A program made the translations under genes and the position numbers. The notes beneath the pieces were generated by a model. That model ran no database searches and was not told the DNA's origin. It saw only the letters and a list, made by a program, of their open reading frames with translations. Of a stretch of 47,983 bases of DNA, positions 4,358 to 27,731 are shown in pieces; positions within the stretch are counted from its first letter, which is position 1; each line of letters begins with the position of its first letter. The stretch is taken from the NCBI GenBank assembly GCA_047617785.1, contig JBLGBK010000006.1:1-47983 (forward strand), read 5' to 3'. The stretch is from Colwellia polaris (GTDB lineage Archaea > Nanohalarchaeota > Nanosalinia > Nanosalinales > Nanosalinaceae).

Positions 4358-5215
4358 CTACCGGTTAAGTTCTCTCCACACTTTTAGAAAGTTATCAAGT
4401 GGGTCTTCGCCAGTATTTACCTGAATGTATTTAGCTCGATTCTTTGTCGACTCTTCTTTAAGCATACTTATGTGGTCTTCAAGCTTTCTCTGGTACTTCT
4501 GTTTCGTTTTCGGGGTAAGGTATGTTCTTAGCTTGAAGCTCTTCTCAGGGTGTTTGAATAGTGTATCACCCTCCTGGGTTGGTGAGAGTTCTTCGGGTGA
4601 AAGTGTGTTTACAAGTATAGTATTGTGATTTTCCATGGAATGTAGTGCGTCAACTATCTTTTCTCTGTTTACAAGGAAGTCGGATATTACGACTAGGTAG
4701 GACTCATGTTTGATACGGTTGCTGTACTGGTGCAGGCAGGTGTCCAGTCTGCTTTCAGGGGTTTTATCCAGATTGTTTAGGGTTTCAAGCAATCCGTTCA
4801 GCTTTAGACTTCTTCTGCCGTGGTTGACTTCAGTGAGAGTCTCCGAAAAAACGGAGAAACGAAATCTGTCGCTAGTGTTAGTTGTCATGTAAGCTAGAGC
4901 GAGTCCGATCTTTGCAGCGTGATCATACTTGTTCTCCTCGCCGTAATCCATGGAACTACTTCTATCTACTAGAACATGAACTGTTATACTTTTCTCCTCT
5001 TCAAAGCGCTTGATGTAAAGGTCTTTAGTACGTGCGTAAGCTTTCCAGTCGATCTTGCGGATATCATCGCCTGGAGAGTAGCTTTTGTGGTCTGCGAAAA
5101 CAGTTCCATTTCCTTTACCCTTTCCGGACTGCCTACCTTCCTCCATCTCGGAAGAGTGCTTCTTAAGCGCAAGATTCAGGTTTTCAACTTCTCTCAGGAA
5201 ACTGTGGTCTATCAT
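4358..5215 (-). CDS. DUF58 / vWA-domain MoxR partner
   Basis: FADHKSYSPGDDIRKIDWKAYAR; MIDAS DRSSSM; VISDFL; 4-nt overlap with moxR. Confidence 0.9.
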   Translation of the reverse strand: MIDHSFLREVENLNLALKKHSSEMEEGRQSGKGKGNGTVFADHKSYSPGDDIRKIDWKAYARTKDLYIKRFEEEKSITVHVLVDRSSSMDYGEENKYDHAAKIGLALAYMTTNTSDRFRFSVFSETLTEVNHGRRSLKLNGLLETLNNLDKTPESRLDTCLHQYSNRIKHESYLVVISDFLVNREKIVDALHSMENHNTILVNTLSPEELSPTQEGDTLFKHPEKSFKLRTYLTPKTKQKYQRKLEDHISMLKEESTKNRAKYIQVNTGEDPLDNFLKVWRELNR

Positions 5216-6177
5216 GGGCTCTCAATTATTTCCTCGATGACCTCATCTTCGTCTTTACCTTTCTTCTCCGCTTCAAAGCTTAGTCCGATCCGGTGCCGTA
5301 GAACCGGTTTTGCCATCTCTTCGATATCCTTTACTGATACATGGTTCCGACCTTTCATAACTGCATGTCCTTTTGCGGCGATAATTAGGTTGATTGATCC
5401 GCGTGGAGAGGCGCCGTATTTCAGATTATCGTTTTCACGAGTCTCTTTAACTATAGAAATTGCCTCATCTCGGATATCGTTAGCGACAGGAATCTGAAGT
5501 GTAAACTCTTGCAGCTTCTTCAGAGAAGCCTTGGAAAGAATAGTATCAAGATCAGGATTGTAGTCCAGTTCTTTGGTGAAACGGTCTACGATCTCCTGTT
5601 CCTCATCAAACTTTGGATAGTCCAGACTTAATTTCATCATGAAACGGTCTCTCTGAGCTTCTGGCAGCGGATATGTCCCTTCCTGTTCAAGAGGGTTCTG
5701 TGTGGCCATAAGGAAGAACGGCTTATCGAGTTGGTAAGTGTCGTTTCCTACTGTTACCTGTTTCTCCTGCATAGCTTCGAGAAGCGCGGACTGTGTCTTC
5801 GGGGTAGCACGGTTGATTTCATCGGCCAGTACGATGTTTGCGAAGATCGGTCCTTCTTGGAACTTGAACTCTGTACTGTTCTCTCCTTCCTCAATGATGT
5901 GTGTTCCTGTGATGTCAGAAGGCATCAGATCCGGAGTATTCTGTATACGTGCAAAATCAAGACCTAGAACCTCGGAAATCGTCCTTACCATCTTGGTTTT
6001 ACCCATACCGGGGTTAGATTCCAGCAGGACGTTTCCATCACATAGAATACTTATTATTACTTTCTCAATGACGTCTTCTTGTCCTACTATTACTTTCCGG
6101 ATCTCGTTGATTATGTTCTGGGTTTTTTCGCTTGCTTTTTCGTACTTCTCAGCATCACTACTTTTAGCTTTCATCAT
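5212..6177 (-). CDS. moxR: MoxR-family AAA+ ATPase
   Basis: Walker A variant SNPGMGKT, RIQNTPDLMPSDITG, Walker B LADEINRA, ATQNPLEQEGTYPLPEAQRDRF. Confidence 0.95.
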   Translation of the reverse strand: MMKAKSSDAEKYEKASEKTQNIINEIRKVIVGQEDVIEKVIISILCDGNVLLESNPGMGKTKMVRTISEVLGLDFARIQNTPDLMPSDITGTHIIEEGENSTEFKFQEGPIFANIVLADEINRATPKTQSALLEAMQEKQVTVGNDTYQLDKPFFLMATQNPLEQEGTYPLPEAQRDRFMMKLSLDYPKFDEEQEIVDRFTKELDYNPDLDTILSKASLKKLQEFTLQIPVANDIRDEAISIVKETRENDNLKYGASPRGSINLIIAAKGHAVMKGRNHVSVKDIEEMAKPVLRHRIGLSFEAEKKGKDEDEVIEEIIESP

Positions 6178-6382
6178 GTTAAAACAAGATTGTTCTAGAA
6201 ATTTAACTTCTTGGTAAGAAGACCTCTTTCCTCGTGAGTGAAACTAACAAGGTGGTAAGATAAATTGCTTTTTGCCCAAGAAAAAAGTCAAAGCTCGTGT
6301 TGCTAGTTAGATGAGATAAAGTCGGCGTAATTAGCATCCAGCCAGAAGCACAGCTGATCTACAGTTTTCTCACTATTCGTAT

Positions 6383-7135
6383 TCAGTTCTCTACATCTTT
6401 TATCGCCAGACTATAATCACGTGCAATCTGGTAATCTATGCTGTCTCCACCACTTGCCTGAAGCTGGAGATCCTGGCTATATGTTTCGCCAAGAGGTGTG
6501 AATCCTTGTCCGGGTTGAGAACGGTAGCTGAAATCTATTTCACGGTTCTGGTAGTCAAAATCATCTACTTCTCCCTGAACTTCTGAGTTGTCGCCGAACT
6601 CTACTTCTGGCACTGAATTGGTTCCTGTTTGAGAACCATTAGTATCTTCGCCATTGCCTATCAGATCGTCTGTGTCTAGATCGTTAATTGTAGTTACTCC
6701 GCCTACAACAGTGGCGACACTCAGGAAGCTTATGATGATTACTTTGGCGAGTATCTTCTCGTTAGGTATTATACTTTCTGAGCTTATCTTTCGGGCAGTA
6801 TCTGTAACTTCATTAAACAGTTTTTCCGCTGGTAAACTGGTTTCATCAAGATTATCGCGGGCTGTTCTCAGTATTTCGGCTAGCTCAGGATTTTCCTCTT
6901 CGTAGATTTCAATACTGTAGCCTCTTGTCCGGTAAAAAGAATCCCCTATGAAGAAAATCAGGCAGATACCTGCAATAATACTATAGTCGGGGTAAGGAAG
7001 TCCAAGACTATAACCTGAAAGCTTCAATACTAAGTAAGATACCTGAAAAGCTATTATAGAATCCAGAAATCCTTGAAGGACGTTAACCTTCCAGTATTCT
7101 CTCTTCAACTGTTTGAATAATTTTTCTACTCTCAT
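6383..7135 (-). CDS. Membrane hypothetical protein of the archaeal MoxR cluster (about 3 TM)
   Basis: Three hydrophobic segments; E-NPELAEILRTARDN motif; ATG overlaps the upstream TGA (ATGA). Confidence 0.7.
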   Translation of the reverse strand: MRVEKLFKQLKREYWKVNVLQGFLDSIIAFQVSYLVLKLSGYSLGLPYPDYSIIAGICLIFFIGDSFYRTRGYSIEIYEEENPELAEILRTARDNLDETSLPAEKLFNEVTDTARKISSESIIPNEKILAKVIIISFLSVATVVGGVTTINDLDTDDLIGNGEDTNGSQTGTNSVPEVEFGDNSEVQGEVDDFDYQNREIDFSYRSQPGQGFTPLGETYSQDLQLQASGGDSIDYQIARDYSLAIKDVEN

Positions 7136-7566
7136 TGGTATCCGTGCTTGATACACTGGTTTTCAGCTGTTGAAGTTAGATTGCTGCTCCCTGTACAGAT
7201 AGTTTCCATGCTTGTGTTCAGGCTTTTAACTGAGTCCTCCAGCGAACCGATATCATCCTTCAGCAATTGGTTGTCCTGCTCTAAACTATCTAAGTTTTCC
7301 TTCAGCTCTGTATTATTAGATTCAATTTCACTTAATTCAGCTTCCGTGGACTGCAGAGAACTGTTCATTCTGTCAAGCTGCTCGGTTAACTGTGATACCT
7401 GTCTTTCCTCTTCTTCGAGACTGTTCTGAAGTCTCTGGTTTTGACCGCTTATATCACTGAGCTCTGCCTGGTAGACAACGGATACTGCTACAAGTATACA
7501 TAAAACCAGCATCAGTGATGTCAATAGGAAGGGGTTCAGTTTTCTCTTAAGTACAGGTACTGCCAT
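7132..7566 (-). CDS. Membrane-anchored coiled-coil protein
   Basis: N-terminal TM followed by about 90 aa of heptad repeats and a C-terminal Cys pair; start reassigned to ATG 7566. Confidence 0.7.
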   Translation of the reverse strand: MAVPVLKRKLNPFLLTSLMLVLCILVAVSVVYQAELSDISGQNQRLQNSLEEEERQVSQLTEQLDRMNSSLQSTEAELSEIESNNTELKENLDSLEQDNQLLKDDIGSLEDSVKSLNTSMETICTGSSNLTSTAENQCIKHGYQ

Positions 7567-7667
7567 TACTACAAGACAAAGATGCACCTTTCAGCTTTTT
7601 AATCATCTGCTACCTATCTCTTTGTGAAATCCTTAAGTAGAATCAGATACCACTTATAGACAGGTAC

Positions 7668-9293
7668 ATGTCCGAAAACGATACCTGTAAATTCGGCCAC
7701 ACATTCAAAGTGGACGGTGATCCGGAATTCGAGAATGATGACGGAGATAACGTAAACTTAACAAAAGCTCTAGAGGAAGGAGAAATAAACTCTCTAGAAG
7801 ATTTGCAGGATCTAACAGGCACCTATTTCCTGGCGCCAATAATGGGAGATCACTGGAAGAAGATTAAGGTCTCAGGAAGCCAGGGAGACGCTTTCACAAT
7901 GGTTATGCCTGCTGCTGACAAGTTCGACGATGATCTAGGCTATGATGTTGAAAAGACTGAGGAGAAAATATTTGTCTCGCCTCAGAGCTCGATGCATGAT
8001 GAATTCATGAATCGGCGTCAACAGGCCGAACAGAGAGTAAAATCAACTATGCAGGGATTCTCTGAACTTTTGAAGGAGAAACAGGTAATTGAACATGATA
8101 TCAGGAAGCTACGCTCTCGTGTTGAAAACTTCGAATCACGGGATGAAACAGTTCTCAAGGCCGACTTTATCGAACTGGTTGACGGAGCAGGTGGCGGACA
8201 GCAAGGAGGAGACCGTGCATCACTCAAGTTCCTGCGAGACCAGAACATCTATCCGTCGATTGTAGCAGACTTCAATGAAATGGATGGTGTTGAAGACCTG
8301 GAAGAGGGTAATAAACTTGGACATCTTCCTGAGAACATTAAAGCGATTCTGAAGAAGAAGTACACGATGTATGAGAAGTGGAAAGATCTTTATGGTACAG
8401 AAGTTCGCAGGAAATTGAACGAACTTAACTCGCAGCTGAAGGCAACCGAAAGGAAGATTGATGAGACAAAGAATTGGCTGGAGCCATACGTTAAGGATAT
8501 GCAGATGATCCAGCAGAAAGAAACAGGAGATAGGAAGGGAGAGTTCAACAAATACTACACGTTTCAGGGCTATTCTTCCATGGAGAGAAACTTGGAGTTC
8601 ATATGCTCGCAGCCTTTGACTAAGGAGGATGGAAGTCTTGTTGTAAATGAGGGGGATGATGAAGAAACTACTCACTACCGTATAGCATACATTCACGGTG
8701 TGCAGATCAATTTAGCAAACCCGGAACAGCCTCAGTCACCTGCTGGAGGCTCTGCTCCAGGAGTAGTAATGGTCTACCCGGCAATTGTATGTAAACATGT
8801 TTACAACAGGGTTTTCCAAGAAAAAATCGATCGTAGCGCCAGCCAGTTTGATGCAGTGATGTCCGATTATGTAGGTGATATCCAGACTGAAGAAGGAGAC
8901 AAGCTTCGGGAGGCGCGTCAAGCTAAGGATCTCTCTGTCCGCGAACTTAGAGAGAAGATAGAGGAAGAAAAAGGCGAGCAAATACCTCTTGAAGTATCAT
9001 CGGATATTAGACGGGTTGAGGATGGAATAGATGACATAAAAGCTATTGAAGAGTATCTTGATATTATAGAGAGTATACTGGAGATTGAGGATGGATTAAT
9101 AGACGGTGAAGAGGATAGTGAACTACGATACGAAGGATTAAACAAGAAGGCCAGGCTTTTCCTAGGACAGACAGATGAATACTATCTAGGAAGCGAACTG
9201 GGCAACGCCTTCAATGATTTCAAGTTCGCAGAATTGGTTTTCAGCTGGTATATCGACTTCAAAAAGAGCCAAGGACTACATACTATGAAATAA
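7668..9293 (+). CDS. Uncharacterised coiled-coil protein with an embedded XRE-like HTH
   Basis: 541-aa acidic ORF with long helical segments; GDKLREARQAKDLSVRELREKI...SDIRRVEDG resembles an XRE HTH. Confidence 0.7.
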   Translation: MSENDTCKFGHTFKVDGDPEFENDDGDNVNLTKALEEGEINSLEDLQDLTGTYFLAPIMGDHWKKIKVSGSQGDAFTMVMPAADKFDDDLGYDVEKTEEKIFVSPQSSMHDEFMNRRQQAEQRVKSTMQGFSELLKEKQVIEHDIRKLRSRVENFESRDETVLKADFIELVDGAGGGQQGGDRASLKFLRDQNIYPSIVADFNEMDGVEDLEEGNKLGHLPENIKAILKKKYTMYEKWKDLYGTEVRRKLNELNSQLKATERKIDETKNWLEPYVKDMQMIQQKETGDRKGEFNKYYTFQGYSSMERNLEFICSQPLTKEDGSLVVNEGDDEETTHYRIAYIHGVQINLANPEQPQSPAGGSAPGVVMVYPAIVCKHVYNRVFQEKIDRSASQFDAVMSDYVGDIQTEEGDKLREARQAKDLSVRELREKIEEEKGEQIPLEVSSDIRRVEDGIDDIKAIEEYLDIIESILEIEDGLIDGEEDSELRYEGLNKKARLFLGQTDEYYLGSELGNAFNDFKFAELVFSWYIDFKKSQGLHTMK

Positions 9294-9294
9294 A

Positions 9295-11826
9295 ATGGCA
9301 GATATCAACTTCCTGATCGATAGCTTGAAAGAGAAACTCGCGGGGGAAGGGAAAGAAGACCAGAGTGGAGATAAATATCCAGACATGAACTATGTAGTTG
9401 GAAATACCTCGGGGATGGATGTTTCTGCCGACATACCGTCTCCACTGGATCAGAGAATCGGGCGTATGGCGCAAATTGGAGGAGAGATGATGGAGGTCCA
9501 ACTAGCTAATCCGGCCACGTTCAAAATCGACCGTCCGGAACTGATGAATGTTCTCAATCAGTTGGGGCTGGACATAACCCTGCATGCTGATCCGAATATC
9601 GGTTTCACAGGAGCATACGCTACAAGAGGCGCACAGGTGCAGGGATATACGGTGGTGCACAGATACTTCAAACGTTACCTTGAGCAGCTAGCAGGTTTTA
9701 AGAAGGATAAAGAAAGAAGAGAGGAAGAACAGGACGAATTTGGTTTTGATATAGGATATGTGAATATACACGCTTCGACAGAGCCAATACCAGGTCTTGA
9801 AGAACAGATTGCATCTGATGTATCTGTTGATCCGTTTGGAATACCTATTAAGGATGTAAAGGCTGGTGATGATGAAGGAAAGAATATTTACCGTAACAGA
9901 GCCTTTATGAGGAAATTTTTCGACTACTTTCTAGACGAGCTATTTGAAGTGCTTAGAATGTATCCTGTTTTCGGGCAGTACTCTCCTTTATTCAAAAAGA
10001 AATGGAATAATAGAAAGGAAGAAGTTGTTGATCTTATATTTGAGTCTGATACCAATCTTACAGGCGAAATAAATCGTAAAGATAAAATAAGACTTTTACA
10101 GAATGCTTCAAGACACGATAGAGTTGGAAATACTTTCAAAGAAGTGATGATGAATCAAGAAGTAGATATTCATCTGGAAGAGACTATAGAAATTCCTCAA
10201 GAAGATGAAGAAGAGCCTATGGAGCGTAAGTTCGAGCAGGATATAGGAAGTCTAAAACAGCTCTTCGAGTCAGTGGTTCAGAGTCCGCTTAGTTTACAAA
10301 ATCTTGATAGCTTTCTGTTTGAGCTAGATCATGAGCCTTCAGTTACTATAGGAAGACGAGGCGAACAACCTATAGAGAAAGAGTTGTCTAGCAGTCAGAT
10401 TCGTGAAGCAAAGGAGGCGCTAGATGAGGTTATAAGAGTTATATGGAAGAAAGATGAAGACATCGACGGGGTTGAAAGAACTCTATCGCTTGAAGCTAAG
10501 CAGCAGGCAATATTCTCCACTCTGAATGACTTGTCTCAAGAAGAGTTCAGAGAATATGCGGATAATGATGAGGGTATACAGGAAGCAGCGAGATCAACTT
10601 TCTCAGGAGGAGAAGAATATTACGAAGGAACTGATAATACTCATCTAGATCTATTCCAGCATCTAATGGAAAAAGGGAGAATGCCTATAGGTAGAGAACT
10701 TGATAAGGAATCTGTTATGTTCTTCCATGTTCTTCCTGCGTGGATGCAGGTAGCTCATAAAGAATATGAAGGTCATAAAGGCTTTCCTGCGGCTAAATTC
10801 ATATGGGAGCAGGTTGTAGGAAATGGTTATGAAGGATACAGCGACTTCAAGAAGTGGACTGAAGAGGATAGAGGCTTCCGTCTTAACGTGATAGCGGCTG
10901 TAGGGTGCTCATACATCTGGGGTCATTTTACTCAGTATGAAGACCATTTTGAGATATCTGAAGAAAACTATAATACCGAGGATAATTTCTTTGAAGAAGA
11001 TGATGATTATACCTGGATTGAGTGGATGAACAAGTTCGGTCTTACAGTTAACTTTGAGGCAATGTATGGTGATCCGGGAAGTCTTCTACGTGTTTGGCGT
11101 CCAAAGGATATTGCAACAGTTTGTAGAGCTATAAATCGTACTGCGGAAAGATACAGTAGTGAGTGGGAGCAAGAGTACAAAGGAGATATTACTAAATTCA
11201 CAATCGATATGGAGCATACCGCTAGCTTCGGAGTCGACCCATGGCCAGAAATGGAAAAACTTATTGAACAGGAAAGAGCCCTCGGCGAAGAAGGCGGCTA
11301 CGGTGTAGATGAAGACAAACCTCTAGCAGATATAGTGAAGACATACCACCTCACCAAGCCGGGATTTGAATCCTCCCAAAGCCATAGACACGGACCGTTC
11401 GCTCGCGGAGACAAAACTCTCTATAGATGGCTTTACAGAATGGTGGAGAGCGGTTTCACACGTGTAGGAGAAGACTCCGACCCCGCTGTAGTTATGTTCG
11501 AAGTAGGAGGAGAGTACGCAGAAGAGATGTACGTGATAAGAGTAGTATTGGATATGATTAGGCTGGGTATAGAGCCAAATGATGTCGATCCAAGCCGAGT
11601 TCCTATGGATGGTGACTATGAAACAATTGAACAGCAACTAATCGCACGCTTCTACGGTATGGACCAATCACGATTCAACCGTGAATGGGCCAAAATTGAG
11701 GAACACGCCTTCGACCCATTATCAGGACTACTAGAAGCAGAGGAATTCGACTACACATGGAGCGGAAGAGCAGCAATTTCTCGCGAGATGCGTCCACCAG
11801 AATGGAACCAAGAAGAATACAGGTAA
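9295..11826 (+). CDS. Large xylose-isomerase/AP-endonuclease-2-like TIM-barrel metalloprotein with a large insertion
   Basis: Ordered strand-end motifs TLHA, NIHAS, NFEAM, TIDMEH, TYHL, HRH, MFE; about 400-aa insert between NIHAS and NFEAM. Confidence 0.65.
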   Translation: MADINFLIDSLKEKLAGEGKEDQSGDKYPDMNYVVGNTSGMDVSADIPSPLDQRIGRMAQIGGEMMEVQLANPATFKIDRPELMNVLNQLGLDITLHADPNIGFTGAYATRGAQVQGYTVVHRYFKRYLEQLAGFKKDKERREEEQDEFGFDIGYVNIHASTEPIPGLEEQIASDVSVDPFGIPIKDVKAGDDEGKNIYRNRAFMRKFFDYFLDELFEVLRMYPVFGQYSPLFKKKWNNRKEEVVDLIFESDTNLTGEINRKDKIRLLQNASRHDRVGNTFKEVMMNQEVDIHLEETIEIPQEDEEEPMERKFEQDIGSLKQLFESVVQSPLSLQNLDSFLFELDHEPSVTIGRRGEQPIEKELSSSQIREAKEALDEVIRVIWKKDEDIDGVERTLSLEAKQQAIFSTLNDLSQEEFREYADNDEGIQEAARSTFSGGEEYYEGTDNTHLDLFQHLMEKGRMPIGRELDKESVMFFHVLPAWMQVAHKEYEGHKGFPAAKFIWEQVVGNGYEGYSDFKKWTEEDRGFRLNVIAAVGCSYIWGHFTQYEDHFEISEENYNTEDNFFEEDDDYTWIEWMNKFGLTVNFEAMYGDPGSLLRVWRPKDIATVCRAINRTAERYSSEWEQEYKGDITKFTIDMEHTASFGVDPWPEMEKLIEQERALGEEGGYGVDEDKPLADIVKTYHLTKPGFESSQSHRHGPFARGDKTLYRWLYRMVESGFTRVGEDSDPAVVMFEVGGEYAEEMYVIRVVLDMIRLGIEPNDVDPSRVPMDGDYETIEQQLIARFYGMDQSRFNREWAKIEEHAFDPLSGLLEAEEFDYTWSGRAAISREMRPPEWNQEEYR

Positions 11827-11909
11827 GGCAAATTCGCCAGTCTATCTCGGTTTCCAAATTTTAAAAGGTTCCGAAACCCTCTCATAACTATAAGGAAGGT
11901 AACTAAGCC

Positions 11910-13175
11910 ATGGTTTCTAAAGACAAGATGAAGGAGATGAGAGAGAAGTCGCAAGAAAGAAGAATGGAAGCGGCACAAGAATTCTCAGACAAGCTGAACG
12001 AAAAACTAGGCGACAAAGTCAAGGTAGTAGCTGTCTGGGGAAGCGTCTCCAAAGGAGAACACGGCTACGACAGCGATATCGACACTCTCGTAATACTAGA
12101 CGACACCAAACTACAGAAAGATGTACCAGACGATGCAAAAGACAAGATCCGGAAAAAAGTAACCAACCTGGCGAAGGAAACCGACGACCGTATAACAATA
12201 CAATACTTCCCATTCCTAACAGAATTCTGGGACTCACTACGTAAAGGAGAGCCATTAGCAATAGAAGCAGTAAGACATGGCGATCCCGTATACGATACAG
12301 GGCTTTTCATGCCTGCGAAGAGACTTCTACAGAGAGGAAAAATCTCTGGAACACAAGAATCAGTGAAGAAACGACTAAAGACAGCAGCAGCAGGATACAA
12401 GAAAGCAGAAAAAACAGTAAAGTCCTCAACGCCACACAAACTCGAGCAGGCTATGGCAAACGCAGGGCAAGGCCCAATAATGCTGGCAGGAAAGGCTCCG
12501 CCAGGCAAGGAAAAAGTTCCTGACGTACTTGAAGAAATGTTTGTAGAAAAAGGTATGCTTGAACAAGAGTACGTCGATATGGCTCGAGAAATCTATGAAC
12601 TAGGAGATAAAGGAGAGAAGAACCCGGGAGAAGTTACCGGAGAAGAGATTGAAGAAGTACTTAACAAGACAGACGACTTCGTCCGCAGAATGCACAAACT
12701 TGTCTCACAGCTATCCGCAGAGAGAAAAGTCAAAGGCATAGTAGACGATTACAAGAAATTCCTTAAGGCAAATATTGCAGCGCTCCGATCAAAGGGAGTT
12801 GAGCCTCCAAAGGACAAGGAAAATCTCCCTAGCGTGGTAGAAGAGAATCTAGATGTAGATAATAAGCACATCGAGATGTTTGAACGATGGGAGCATGTTA
12901 TCAGCAAGATTAAGGACAAGGAGCTGGATGAAGTCGACGAGAAGGAGATATACGAACTGAAGAATGAATCACAGGACTTCGTCTCCGATGTTGGAAAGGA
13001 TATCCAGAAGATGAAAGAAGATCAGAAGGCCAAGAACATGACTCCTCAAATGGATACGAACTCCATAGCTAAAGCAGCTAACACAGAAGAAGTAGTGCCT
13101 GATCTAGACAAGGAAGCTGAGAGAAAGGCAGAAGAAGACATCGACGATGAGGACGAAGAACCTGAGAAACCGTAA
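11910..13175 (+). CDS. Minimal nucleotidyltransferase (Pol-beta superfamily) fused to a HEPN-like helical domain
   Basis: VWGSVSKGEHGYDSDIDTLVILDD (hGS...DxD); HEPN-like segment LEQAMANAGQGPIMLAGKAPP...MFVEKGMLEQEY. Confidence 0.75.
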   Translation: MVSKDKMKEMREKSQERRMEAAQEFSDKLNEKLGDKVKVVAVWGSVSKGEHGYDSDIDTLVILDDTKLQKDVPDDAKDKIRKKVTNLAKETDDRITIQYFPFLTEFWDSLRKGEPLAIEAVRHGDPVYDTGLFMPAKRLLQRGKISGTQESVKKRLKTAAAGYKKAEKTVKSSTPHKLEQAMANAGQGPIMLAGKAPPGKEKVPDVLEEMFVEKGMLEQEYVDMAREIYELGDKGEKNPGEVTGEEIEEVLNKTDDFVRRMHKLVSQLSAERKVKGIVDDYKKFLKANIAALRSKGVEPPKDKENLPSVVEENLDVDNKHIEMFERWEHVISKIKDKELDEVDEKEIYELKNESQDFVSDVGKDIQKMKEDQKAKNMTPQMDTNSIAKAANTEEVVPDLDKEAERKAEEDIDDEDEEPEKP

Positions 13176-13199: not shown

Positions 13200-13634
13200 T
13201 TAATTTTCATCTGGAAAAAGATACTCTCGTATATGTGAATGCTCCAGGGACCAGACCATATCTTCTACTTCTGGCTTCTTCACGAAGTCAGGATCTCCTT
13301 CCCAAGAACCGTTTTTCTCACCTTGAATTACTTCTGCTTCGAAGAACACTGTGAAGCCACAGCTTTCATGCGTACGGATATCAAGAATATTATGTATTTC
13401 AACTTCAAAACCTGTTTCCTCGCTTACTTCTCGGGCAGCAGCTTCTTTAGGATCCTCTCCTGCTTTAATCAAGCCTCCTGGAAGACGGTATTCGCCATCA
13501 AGGTTCAGTACTAGAATGTCGTTGTTTTCTCCATGCGCAAGTACTGCTACAGAAGGTACGGACCAGAATATTCTGCTTAGAATTCGTGCTCCATATTTTT
13601 CCGGGTAATTCTTCACGAATTTTCCAAGGTTCAT
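13200..13634 (-). CDS. NUDIX hydrolase
   Basis: Nudix box GGLIKAGEDPKEAAAREVSEETG; likely ATG start at 13634. Confidence 0.9.
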   Translation of the reverse strand: MNLGKFVKNYPEKYGARILSRIFWSVPSVAVLAHGENNDILVLNLDGEYRLPGGLIKAGEDPKEAAAREVSEETGFEVEIHNILDIRTHESCGFTVFFEAEVIQGEKNGSWEGDPDFVKKPEVEDMVWSLEHSHIREYLFPDEN

Positions 13635-13661
13635 ATAGTTTAATTTAACCAACTTTGGTTT

Positions 13662-14039
13662 ATGAGAGTTCTATTTATTTGTGAAGGAAACCGTTTCAGA
13701 AGCATGATTGCAGAAGCATTCGCAAAAAGAGAAGGAATCGAAGCTGACTCGGCAGGAACTGAAGCCACAGGACCAATCTTCGATGAAGTGAAACAACTCG
13801 TTCAAGAATACGACTTGGAGGACTATGTAGATTACAATCCGGAGCAGGTCAATAAGGATAAAGTTGATTCAGCAGATAGAATTGTCTGTATGACGGAAGA
13901 TCAGGCAGAATTTGTCCAGAAGATCTACAGTGCTAAACATGAAAACGTAGAAGTTTGGAATATAGAGGATGCAGATCCAGAAGATAATCTTGAGCCAGTA
14001 ATGGAGGACTTGTTCCAGAAAGTTTTGAATATGAAATAA
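13662..14039 (+). CDS. Low-molecular-weight protein-tyrosine phosphatase / ArsC-family protein
   Basis: P-loop FICEGNRFRS, ADSAG, WNIED. Confidence 0.85.
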   Translation: MRVLFICEGNRFRSMIAEAFAKREGIEADSAGTEATGPIFDEVKQLVQEYDLEDYVDYNPEQVNKDKVDSADRIVCMTEDQAEFVQKIYSAKHENVEVWNIEDADPEDNLEPVMEDLFQKVLNMK

Positions 14040-26378: not shown

Positions 26379-27731
26379 ATGAACTGGGAACGCCTCAGAA
26401 AAAAAGTAATTGAAAGAACATACCCTGACGAAGAAGACTTCCAGGAAATGCAAGAACTCTTCGGTAGAATATCAAGCTACATAGAACACAAACATGGGCT
26501 TGAAGTACACTTCGCAGGCTCCGCCTCAAGAAAAACATGTATGAAGGGTGACAAAGACCTAGACATGTTCTTAATGTTTCCAGAAGACACCTCAAGGAAA
26601 GAACTGGAAGAAAAAGGCATAAGTGTAGGCAAAGACATCTTCAACCAATTTGACAGCGAATACCATGTTGAATACGCGGAACATCCCTACACCAAAGGCC
26701 ATATAGAAGGAACAGAAGTCGAAGTAGTGCCCTGCTATGATATCCCTGCAGATCAGATCAAAAGCAGCGTGGATAGAACACCACACCACAGTAAATGGAG
26801 CCAGAAAAATCTAGGTGAAGAACAAAGAAGAGACGTAGTTGTACTCAAGAAATTTCTCTCAGCAAAAGAACTCTATGGATCATCTCTCAAAGTAAAAGGT
26901 TTCTCAGGATATCTCTGTGAGATACTGATACACGAATACGGAAGCTTCAGAAATCTGATTGAAGAAGCATCAAATTGGCCAGAGCAAAAAATACTTGATC
27001 CCGAAAGCCATCACGAAAACGGGCTGCCTGAAGAGCTTCAGGAAAAGTTCAGCGAGGACAACCTTGTTGTGGTAGATCCTGTAGATCCAGAAAGAAATGT
27101 TTCTGCAGTGTTAAACACAGAAAATTATACACGATTCATCTACGAAGCTGTAAACTTCCTAGATGATATGGGTATGCATCATTTCGAAAAAGAAGAATCT
27201 GAATACACACAGCTCCAGATTAAGAACGAGCTGGATGGAAGAAACCATCTCACAGTCATCGAGTTTAATTCAGTTGATCAGGTTGATGATATAGTATATC
27301 CGCAGATCCGTAAAGCGGTCCGTAGGATCGAGCAGCTGCTTGAAGGAAATGACTTCACGGTATATGCTTCAGGTTTCCACGTGAATGATAAGACTCGAAT
27401 CTACTTCGAGACGGAGGAAAAACTTTCAGAACTACGTGAGCTCAAAGGACCAAAGCTTTTCCACGGAAAAGATCACGTCAGACAGTTTAAACAGAAGTAC
27501 GATAACACTTACGTCAAAAATGATAGGCTCTGCGCGAAGACTGAAAGAGATTATCTAAGACCTAAACAGATTATACAGGATTTGTCAGATGATCCTCAGG
27601 AATTGAAGAAGGACGGCATTCCCGAGGCTGTAGCTCAGAAAATGAGTGCGCGTAACTACGTTGATCCGCTTCTTGATAACCAAAAATGGTTAAACTTTCT
27701 TGGGGAAGAACTACACGTGAACAAGCAATGA
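26379..27731 (+). CDS. cca: CCA-adding enzyme (class I)
   Basis: GSASRKT...DKDLDMF, YAEHPY, SSVDRTPHH, GFSGYLCE, DPVDPERNV. Confidence 0.96.
   Translation: MNWERLRKKVIERTYPDEEDFQEMQELFGRISSYIEHKHGLEVHFAGSASRKTCMKGDKDLDMFLMFPEDTSRKELEEKGISVGKDIFNQFDSEYHVEYAEHPYTKGHIEGTEVEVVPCYDIPADQIKSSVDRTPHHSKWSQKNLGEEQRRDVVVLKKFLSAKELYGSSLKVKGFSGYLCEILIHEYGSFRNLIEEASNWPEQKILDPESHHENGLPEELQEKFSEDNLVVVDPVDPERNVSAVLNTENYTRFIYEAVNFLDDMGMHHFEKEESEYTQLQIKNELDGRNHLTVIEFNSVDQVDDIVYPQIRKAVRRIEQLLEGNDFTVYASGFHVNDKTRIYFETEEKLSELRELKGPKLFHGKDHVRQFKQKYDNTYVKNDRLCAKTERDYLRPKQIIQDLSDDPQELKKDGIPEAVAQKMSARNYVDPLLDNQKWLNFLGEELHVNKQ

Follow-up and report, generated by a model that had tools for sequence, protein, structure and literature searches.

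A three-gene operon with a split endonuclease-IV-like barrel and an MNT-HEPN nucleotidyltransferase in two phyla of DPANN archaea

DPANN archaea have tiny genomes and have shed most dispensable genes. One of them carries three large adjacent genes of no assigned function. These genes, here called P1, P2 and P3, are located on a contig of 47,983 nucleotides (JBLGBK010000006.1 of GenBank assembly GCA_047617785.1, Colwellia polaris, GTDB family Nanosalinaceae), which was analyzed over its whole length and is referred to as the window. The source genome, in which the window is contig C6, has a size of 787 kb and a completeness of 96.6%; judged by the source names of homologues of the three proteins, it belongs to Nanohaloarchaeota. 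A preliminary description of the window had proposed a module of three large co-oriented genes, coding for a coiled-coil/helix-turn-helix (HTH) protein, a metalloenzyme with the AP-endonuclease-2/xylose-isomerase fold and a fusion of a minimal nucleotidyltransferase (MNT) domain with a HEPN domain. The list of open reading frames (ORFs) agrees exactly with this layout: P1 (positions 7668–9293, 541 aa), P2 (9295–11826, 843 aa) and P3 (11910–13175, 421 aa) all lie on the forward strand, separated by gaps of 1 nt (P1-P2) and 83 nt (P2-P3), and P1 is translationally coupled to P2. The three ORFs are far beyond chance, and many homologues were found for each.

Distribution of the three genes and of the small S proteins

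In a survey of 41 Nanohaloarchaeota genomes, P1 was detected in 39, P2 in 37 and P3 in 38, and each of them was present in all 21 genomes with a completeness of 90% or more. Eighteen loci from five families of the order were fetched. The 16 that were sufficiently long all contained the genes in the order P1-P2-P3 and in the same orientation, and the two remaining loci were cut by contig ends and had two of the three genes side by side. The preliminary description had also stated that similar proteins occur together in other DPANN lineages such as Woese- and Pacearchaeota. The second phylum in which they were found here is Aenigmatarchaeota: among 61 genomes evenly drawn from this phylum (completeness of at least 80%), the same 60 contained P1, P2 and P3, mostly in this order, and a single genome (G049) was without all three. 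P1 was directly upstream of P2 in 53 of these 60 genomes. P3 was directly downstream of P2 in 44 genomes; in 4 others it was within 4 kb, and in the remaining 12 it was located elsewhere or on a different contig. We regard it as nearly certain that P1-P2-P3 is an operon of housekeeping type that belongs to the core genes of Nanohaloarchaeota and Aenigmatarchaeota; it is no island of defence or toxin-antitoxin genes.

When GTDB genomes were scanned with a pattern from an alignment of distant P2 proteins, 34 loci were obtained, from Aenigmatarchaeota and one Nanoanaerosalina. In the Aenigmatarchaeota loci, which were examined by tblastn and ORF maps, P1-P2 is followed either by a single P3 or by tandem P3a (275–340 aa) and P3b (360–410 aa) genes, and a P3a/P3b pair was found elsewhere in the genome in five of five genomes without P3 beside P2. 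We also observed a second, Aenigmatarchaeota-like P3b and P3a pair in three genomes of other Nanohaloarchaeota families (G030:C76:22856-24748, G031:C4:45540-47426 and G035:C14:1332-3224), where it apparently forms one frame of 636–699 aa.

A further protein family, designated S, was often found next to the operon. It consists of two tandem paralogues of ~165–195 aa that belong to no Pfam family and are encoded divergently upstream of P1 in 20 of the 34 loci, with a third S gene after P2 in three of the 34. In the Aenigmatarchaeota sample, S was present in the same 60 genomes as P1-P3 and adjoined P1 in 45 of them. A hidden Markov model built solely from Aenigmatarchaeota S sequences matched two adjacent ORFs of the source genome, C14:10711-11157 with E 1.7e-16 and C14:11154-11786 with E 3e-9. 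These are the first two of three tandem ORFs (C14:10711-12428; 148, 210 and 211 aa), none of which has a Pfam family. With a query that included the source genome's own rows, S was detected in 38 of the 41 Nanohaloarchaeota, including 21/21 of high quality, mostly in the form of three genes in tandem. The S proteins could be additional subunits of the module. A set of five to six genes, with one subunit as conserved as ATP synthase, is near-universal in the sampled genomes of two phyla with tiny genomes and is, therefore, very likely important for DPANN biology.

Features of P2, P1 and P3

P2 is, with near certainty, an AP_endonuc_2 superfamily member whose (beta/alpha)8 barrel is split after strand 4 and appears to keep an endonuclease-IV-type multinuclear metal site. 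Its AlphaFold2 (AF2) model (predicted local distance difference test (pLDDT) 82.4, predicted template modelling score (pTM) 0.79) has four strands in residues 33–159 and four in residues 585–735. The N-terminal half of the barrel (residues ~30–194, strands 1–4, positions 9382–9876) carries H97 and H159 at strand ends, and the C-terminal half (residues ~576–760, strands 5–8, positions 11020–11574) carries E588, D638, E640, H641, H685, H699 and E736. The insert of ~380 residues between them (residues ~195–575, positions 9877–11019), as seen in the AF2 model and in the alignment, is mostly helical with beta hairpins and differs in length and sequence by lineage; matches to distant P2 relatives were likewise split into N and C parts. 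When the model was compared with 48,161 chains using VIA-align, the top 47 rows were all of xylose-isomerase-like fold (Z 18.1–14.2, 233–310 residues aligned, model residues ~30–760). E. coli endonuclease IV was matched over 261 residues with Z 17.9 and a root-mean-square deviation (rmsd) of 3.5 (model residues 32–762).

A profile of 23 Nanohaloarchaeota P2 homologues retrieved 133 proteins among 1.84 billion representatives. Of 23 distant homologues (500–860 aa), 11 matched PF01261 (AP_endonuc_2) at E≤0.01 and three exceeded the cut-off of this family (31.1 bits), each match covering the first ~90 positions of the model or its last ~140. The metal ligands were followed across 55 aligned sequences, which come from both phyla. 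H97, H159, E588, D638 and E736 were kept in all 55 sequences, H685 and H699 in 54 and H641 in 51; H544 and E640, besides, were present in 53, and all of these residues sit at strand ends of the AF2 model. With the first eight of these residues, P2 retains eight of the nine metal-ligand positions of endonuclease IV (H-H-E-D-H-H-D-H-E). In addition, P2 profiles from Aenigmatarchaeota were aligned by hhalign with canonical nfo genes from 12 relatives: the N-terminal half matched with E 1.7e-5 and both His paired, and the C-terminal half with E 3.7e-3 and D..H as well as the next H paired, so that five P2 ligand positions were aligned to nfo. The fold comparison, the PF01261 matches of distant homologues, the hhalign results and the conserved ligands agree with the metalloenzyme fold proposed for P2 in the preliminary description.

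Endonuclease IV (Nfo/Apn1; TIGR00587, within PF01261) resembles P2 in its TIM (triose-phosphate isomerase) barrel and in the location of ligands at C-terminal strand ends. In contrast to endonuclease IV, P2 has the ~380-residue insert, a C-terminal tail of 50 residues that is conserved, and a partner gene that is obligatory. Canonical nfo (TIGR00587 over cut-off) was found in 35 of the 41 relatives. As nfo and P2 coexist in these genomes, P2 is a separate enzyme rather than a diverged nfo, and a role as nfo replacement was ruled out because the 35 relatives carry both. Canonical nfo was not found in the source genome (96.6% complete) or in G001, which belongs to the same genus (74% complete), and is present in G002 of that genus. 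Besides P2, the source genome has one CbiR-like and one other AP_endonuc_2 gene. The trinuclear AP_endonuc_2 enzymes named in NCBIfam, deoxyribonuclease IV and CbiR, are both phosphodiesterases. The latter, a cobamide-remodelling phosphodiesterase of P2's superfamily, shows that this fold cleaves non-DNA phosphodiesters too. However, CbiR-like proteins have ~250 aa and are unsplit and partnerless, P2 does not match the CbiR model, and the Nanohaloarchaeota P2 profile gave no significant hhalign match to the genome's own CbiR-like protein.

P1 is a partner protein without a Pfam or NCBIfam family; it had no usable match in the Atlas, and a PDB sequence search with it returned nothing significant. 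It has 183 homologues, and a two-phylum alignment shows a conserved core (residues ~62–410) with invariant H143, D144, R146, F167, D172, D201, F202, K231 and W238. The coiled-coil part of its earlier characterization is consistent with coiled-coil-like stretches and with weak matches to coiled-coil families, but the HTH part was not supported. Two NCBI records label P1 homologues 'multiprotein-bridging factor 1 family'; however, Pfam detects no HTH, and the aMBF1 model gives 10 bits against a cut-off of 110. P1 of three Aenigmatarchaeota loci (L054, L057 and L058) has a zinc-ribbon-like insert (CPKC...CPKCGS / CGKCGS) that is absent from other P1 proteins.

The C-terminal ~50 residues of P2 (EHAxDPLxGLL ... 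EW..EEY) are kept from Nanohaloarchaeota to Aenigmatarchaeota. This tail (residues 791–843, positions 11665–11823; pLDDT 38–51 in the monomer AF2 model) is a candidate docking peptide for P1. Complex prediction of P2 residues 770–843 with P1 and P3(1–376) gave a score of 0.35 compared with 0.00 for the best of three controls, a result classed as weak support; 116 of 157 solved complexes reach the mark used, as do 2 of 215 mismatches, and at scores of ≤0.60 it is reached by just 18 of the 157 solved complexes together with both passing mismatches. Contact agreement between runs was at least 45%, and the pLDDT of the partner was at least 47. The tail also scored 0.00 in the control in which P1 was swapped and P3 retained; therefore, docking, if real, would be onto P1. 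P1 is thus weakly predicted to hold the conserved tail of P2.

P3 matches PF01909 (NTP_transf_2) with 35.2 bits (cut-off 21), and its AF2 model has a pLDDT of 82.2. The MNT domain (residues 4–134, positions 11919–12311) aligned with a Sulfolobus minimal nucleotidyltransferase (Z 10.8, 108 residues, rmsd 3.2), and the HEPN domain (residues 148–267, positions 12351–12710) with AF_0298 HEPN (Z 17.1, 119 residues, rmsd 2.2), the next rows (Z 15.1–12.7) being HEPN proteins too. The Pfam match and the fold searches leave the MNT-HEPN assignment of the preliminary description in place. A helical extension (residues 270–376) and an acidic tail (377–421) follow at positions 12717–13172. In 29 sequences from the two phyla, G44, S45, S55, D56, D58, D64 and D65 were invariant, and this GS..D.D..DD motif indicates that the transferase site of P3 is intact. 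The HEPN Rx4-6H site is absent in the window P3 (DKGE-K), and other Nanohaloarchaeota have D/N-K-G/A-E-K; in Aenigmatarchaeota it reads RKKIEHK in most P3b proteins and WKDIDHK in P3a. Judging from these motifs, RNase activity is not a conserved feature of P3, and the HEPN domain of Nanohaloarchaeota P3, having lost the RNase motif, probably merely binds. P3 is 69–79% identical across Nanohaloarchaeota genera, compared with 74–86% for ATP synthase A and B and 35–55% for P1 and P2. Conservation at the level of ATP synthase suggests a very conserved macromolecular substrate.

The best Foldseek rows for P3 were Hailong HalB (E 1.5e-4), ANT(9)/ANT(4'), DrrA, GlnE and MntA. HalB is an oligodeoxyadenylate synthase that carries out template-free polymerization of the MNT type; it is the best match, with low TM-scores (0.26/0.45). 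Unlike HalB, P3 has no defence context, and it scores 14.3 bits with the HalB model, whose cut-off is 190. P3 also remained below the family cut-offs of ANT(4')-I (32.9 vs 350 bits), ANT(9) (15.9 vs 340) and MntA (19 vs 60). Type VII MNT-HEPN pairs and KNTase/ANT-type fusions contain the same two domains as P3, and their order in P3 is that of KNTase-like enzymes. A role as the CCA-adding enzyme was ruled out, since the canonical archaeal one (PF09249 1.6e-36 and PF01909) is encoded at positions 26379–27731 of the window (forward strand).

A protein of this description has been listed before. Makarova, Wolf & Koonin (2019; PMC6393860) count a DPANN MNT-HEPN fusion among priority unknowns; their main text describes cls.004259 (NEQ050) as 'MNT fused to HEPN ... 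typically in house-keeping context', a description that P3 fits in architecture, lineage and housekeeping context. Another of their clusters, cls.004340 (NEQ484), is described there as 'alpha helical protein' and might, by this description, be P1. The main text of PMC6393860 contains no occurrence of 'TIM barrel' or 'endonuclease IV' and does not tie the fusion to a TIM-barrel enzyme. Our literature search found no paper on the module besides this one.

Possible joint functions

We tentatively place first, at a likelihood well short of even, a pair of enzymes on a scaffold, one cutting a phosphodiester and the other adding nucleotides to 3' ends of a nucleic acid, probably RNA. All three proteins would share a single substrate, most probably a 3' end, either of a conserved RNA or of some other nucleic acid. 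Like endonuclease IV and CbiR, P2 would use its putative multinuclear metal site to hydrolyze a phosphodiester or a 3'-blocking phosphate, P3 would add nucleotides to the 3'-OH freed by P2, and P1 together with the P2 insert would serve as scaffold. This possibility is ranked first because of the precedent set by endonuclease IV, the resemblance of P3 to HalB-type enzymes, the conservation of P3 at the level of ATP synthase, the lysine-rich P3 tails and the zinc-ribbon-like insert of P1. The lysine-rich tails were seen in four non-halophilic relatives (L054, L057, L058 and L060).

Several observations, however, weigh against cutting and extension of 3' ends. The window P2 has no Pfam match at E≤1 and matches neither an NCBIfam family nor a PDB sequence. 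Its ninth metal-ligand position, that of D229 in endonuclease IV, falls in a variable loop with no clear equivalent, and the P2 profile of Nanohaloarchaeota gave no significant hhalign match to canonical nfo, either in full or when divided into its two halves. In the fold comparison, the scores of endonuclease IV and of isomerases/epimerases are a tie, and MbnB of MbnABC was matched with Z 14.5 over 238 residues; MbnB-type iron oxidases need a partner protein and share an endonuclease-IV-like ligand set. The isoelectric points (pI) of P1-P3 do not mark them as nucleic-acid binders. The nearest structures to P3 include enzymes that modify small molecules or protein tyrosines, besides those that synthesize oligonucleotides. 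Finally, the tail score of P2 in the complex prediction is independent of P3, and a physical association of P3 with P1 and P2 is suggested by gene order only.

A more specific form of this proposal, in which P1, P2, P3 and S form one new essential machine of cluster-2 DPANN, with an endonuclease-IV-type phosphodiesterase and a template-independent nucleotidyltransferase on a coiled-coil scaffold, that trims and re-extends a conserved RNA (tRNA, rRNA or other) at its 3' end, appears to us doubtful. If true, it would represent a new housekeeping system of RNA-end maintenance with no counterpart in other archaea. A replacement of RtcB, of the exosome or of RNase P p30 by the module was ruled out, as all of these are present in the source genome; the RtcB match (C1:93712-96417, reverse strand) was in two pieces within one 971-aa frame, as if it had an intein-like insert. 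Whatever the substrate, the enzyme classes, a predicted phosphodiesterase with an endonuclease-IV-type metal site and a nucleotidyltransferase that appears intact, are clear enough to assay, and the non-halophilic Aenigmatarchaeota homologues are tractable material. A candidate enzyme partner and a putative scaffold for the MNT-HEPN fusion may also offer a biochemical handle on what the main text of PMC6393860 lists as a priority unknown.

Among other explanations, the one that survives best, though we think it rather unlikely, is reversible nucleotidylylation, in which P3 attaches AMP or another nucleoside monophosphate (NMP) to a hydroxyl group on a protein or on a small molecule, P2 removes it and P1 presents the target. 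Such a writer/eraser cycle, which the preliminary description had offered as an example next to a nucleic-acid-processing complex, fits the same chemistry as 3'-end cutting and extension. The structural neighbours of P3 include the protein AMPylators DrrA and GlnE, MntA antitoxins, which AMPylate HEPN toxins, and aminoglycoside adenylyltransferases, and an endonuclease-IV-type center could conceivably cleave a Tyr/Ser-O-NMP diester. The P2 tail and P1 would also provide a logic of protein-protein docking, as far as the weak support from the complex prediction (0.35 vs 0.00) goes. Type VII systems, however, modify the tyrosine of the RX4HXY site, and this tyrosine is absent from P3, P3a and P3b. 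In addition, we know of no nucleotidylation eraser with the AP_endonuc_2 fold.

It is also conceivable, but improbable, that there is no joint mechanism and that P2 is a sugar(-phosphate) isomerase/epimerase-like enzyme sharing a transcription unit with an unrelated nucleotidyltransferase. P2 matched the Art22 isomerase with Z 18.1 and tagatose and psicose epimerases with Z 17.9–17.2, which ties with endonuclease IV, and although Foldseek against PDB gave no row at E≤0.001, its best rows were psicose 3-epimerases (E 7e-3). Clusters neighbouring P2 in the Atlas are automatically named sugar phosphate isomerase/epimerase (score 0.89–0.90), which we take as a lead only. Epimerases of this fold use an E-D-H-E set. 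P2, in contrast, has two extra conserved His in its N-terminal half as well as H641 and H699, and all of these align with endonuclease-IV ligands. PDB sequence searches with P2 and with its profile gave nothing significant, and the top three matches of the distant-P2 profile to PDB, likewise non-significant, were chains of the endonuclease-IV family (E 0.06–0.25), the best being an African swine fever virus AP endonuclease (E 0.06). As to unlinked functions, P1, P2 and P3 were found together in the same 60 of 61 Aenigmatarchaeota and are adjacent across two phyla, which argues for a shared function.

Still less probable is a multinuclear iron oxidase of the MbnB/DUF692 type, with P1 as the obligatory MbnC-like partner, that would modify a peptide or protein. 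The fold match to MbnB and the coupling of P1 with P2 are consistent with it, but endonuclease IV outscores MbnB (Z 17.9 vs 14.5), no precursor-peptide gene was seen, and in both phyla, which include sediment and hot-spring lineages assumed to be anaerobic, the module is universal and of housekeeping type.

The weakest candidate, a domesticated HEPN-MNT toxin-antitoxin or anti-virus system, is very improbable: MNT and HEPN are indeed the two halves of type VII pairs, the nucleotidyltransferase domain of P3 matches the candidate defence model PDC-S09 (1.7e-10) and, weakly, HalB, and the main text of PMC6393860 calls the DPANN MNT-HEPN cluster 'most probably' toxin-antitoxin, but the same text remarks on its unusual conservation and housekeeping context, and P3, core across two phyla and extremely conserved, is the opposite of what defence islands contain. 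Type VII pairs are separate genes with a patchy mobile distribution, whereas P3 is one fused gene found in 21/21 high-quality Nanohaloarchaeota and 60/61 Aenigmatarchaeota genomes, has an extra helical extension and, in Nanohaloarchaeota, has lost the HEPN RNase motif Rx4-6H. In PADLOC, P1, P2 and S matched no model and P3 matched only generic nucleotidyltransferase models.

Surroundings of the locus

The preliminary description had remarked on host-like acidity, core-gene surroundings and an absence of adjacent mobility genes, and all of this was seen again. The pI is 4.65 for P1, 4.59 for P2 and 5.08 for P3, and most neighbours fall in the range of 4.2–4.9; the GC content of the three genes is 0.39–0.45, compared with 0.38–0.48 across the window. 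The composition of the three genes fits the host. The neighbours, as named by Pfam, are DUF58, MoxR AAA_3, DUF7502 and a coiled-coil membrane protein on the upstream side, and NUDIX, low-molecular-weight (LMW) phosphatase and subunits D, B and A of the A-type ATP synthase on the downstream side; no mobility gene was found by this naming adjacent to the three-gene set. The spacer between P2 and P3 (positions 11827–11909, forward strand, 83 nt) contains an AT-rich TTTTAAAA box, which, to go by its letters, is a possible separate promoter of P3. A scan for bacterial promoters and terminators gave results at chance level.

The upstream block of DUF58, MoxR AAA_3, DUF7502 and coiled-coil membrane protein genes (positions 4358–7587, reverse strand) is divergent from P1, and the same block was seen beside P1 in 4 of 18 related loci (L013, L015, L018 and L019). 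On the other side, the NUDIX hydrolase gene (13200–13652, reverse strand) is convergent to P3 and is adjoined by the LMW phosphatase gene (13662–14039, forward strand). A NUDIX homologue was located close to P3 in 4 of the 18 related loci (L016, L018, L019 and L030) and ~2.7 kb away from it in L020.

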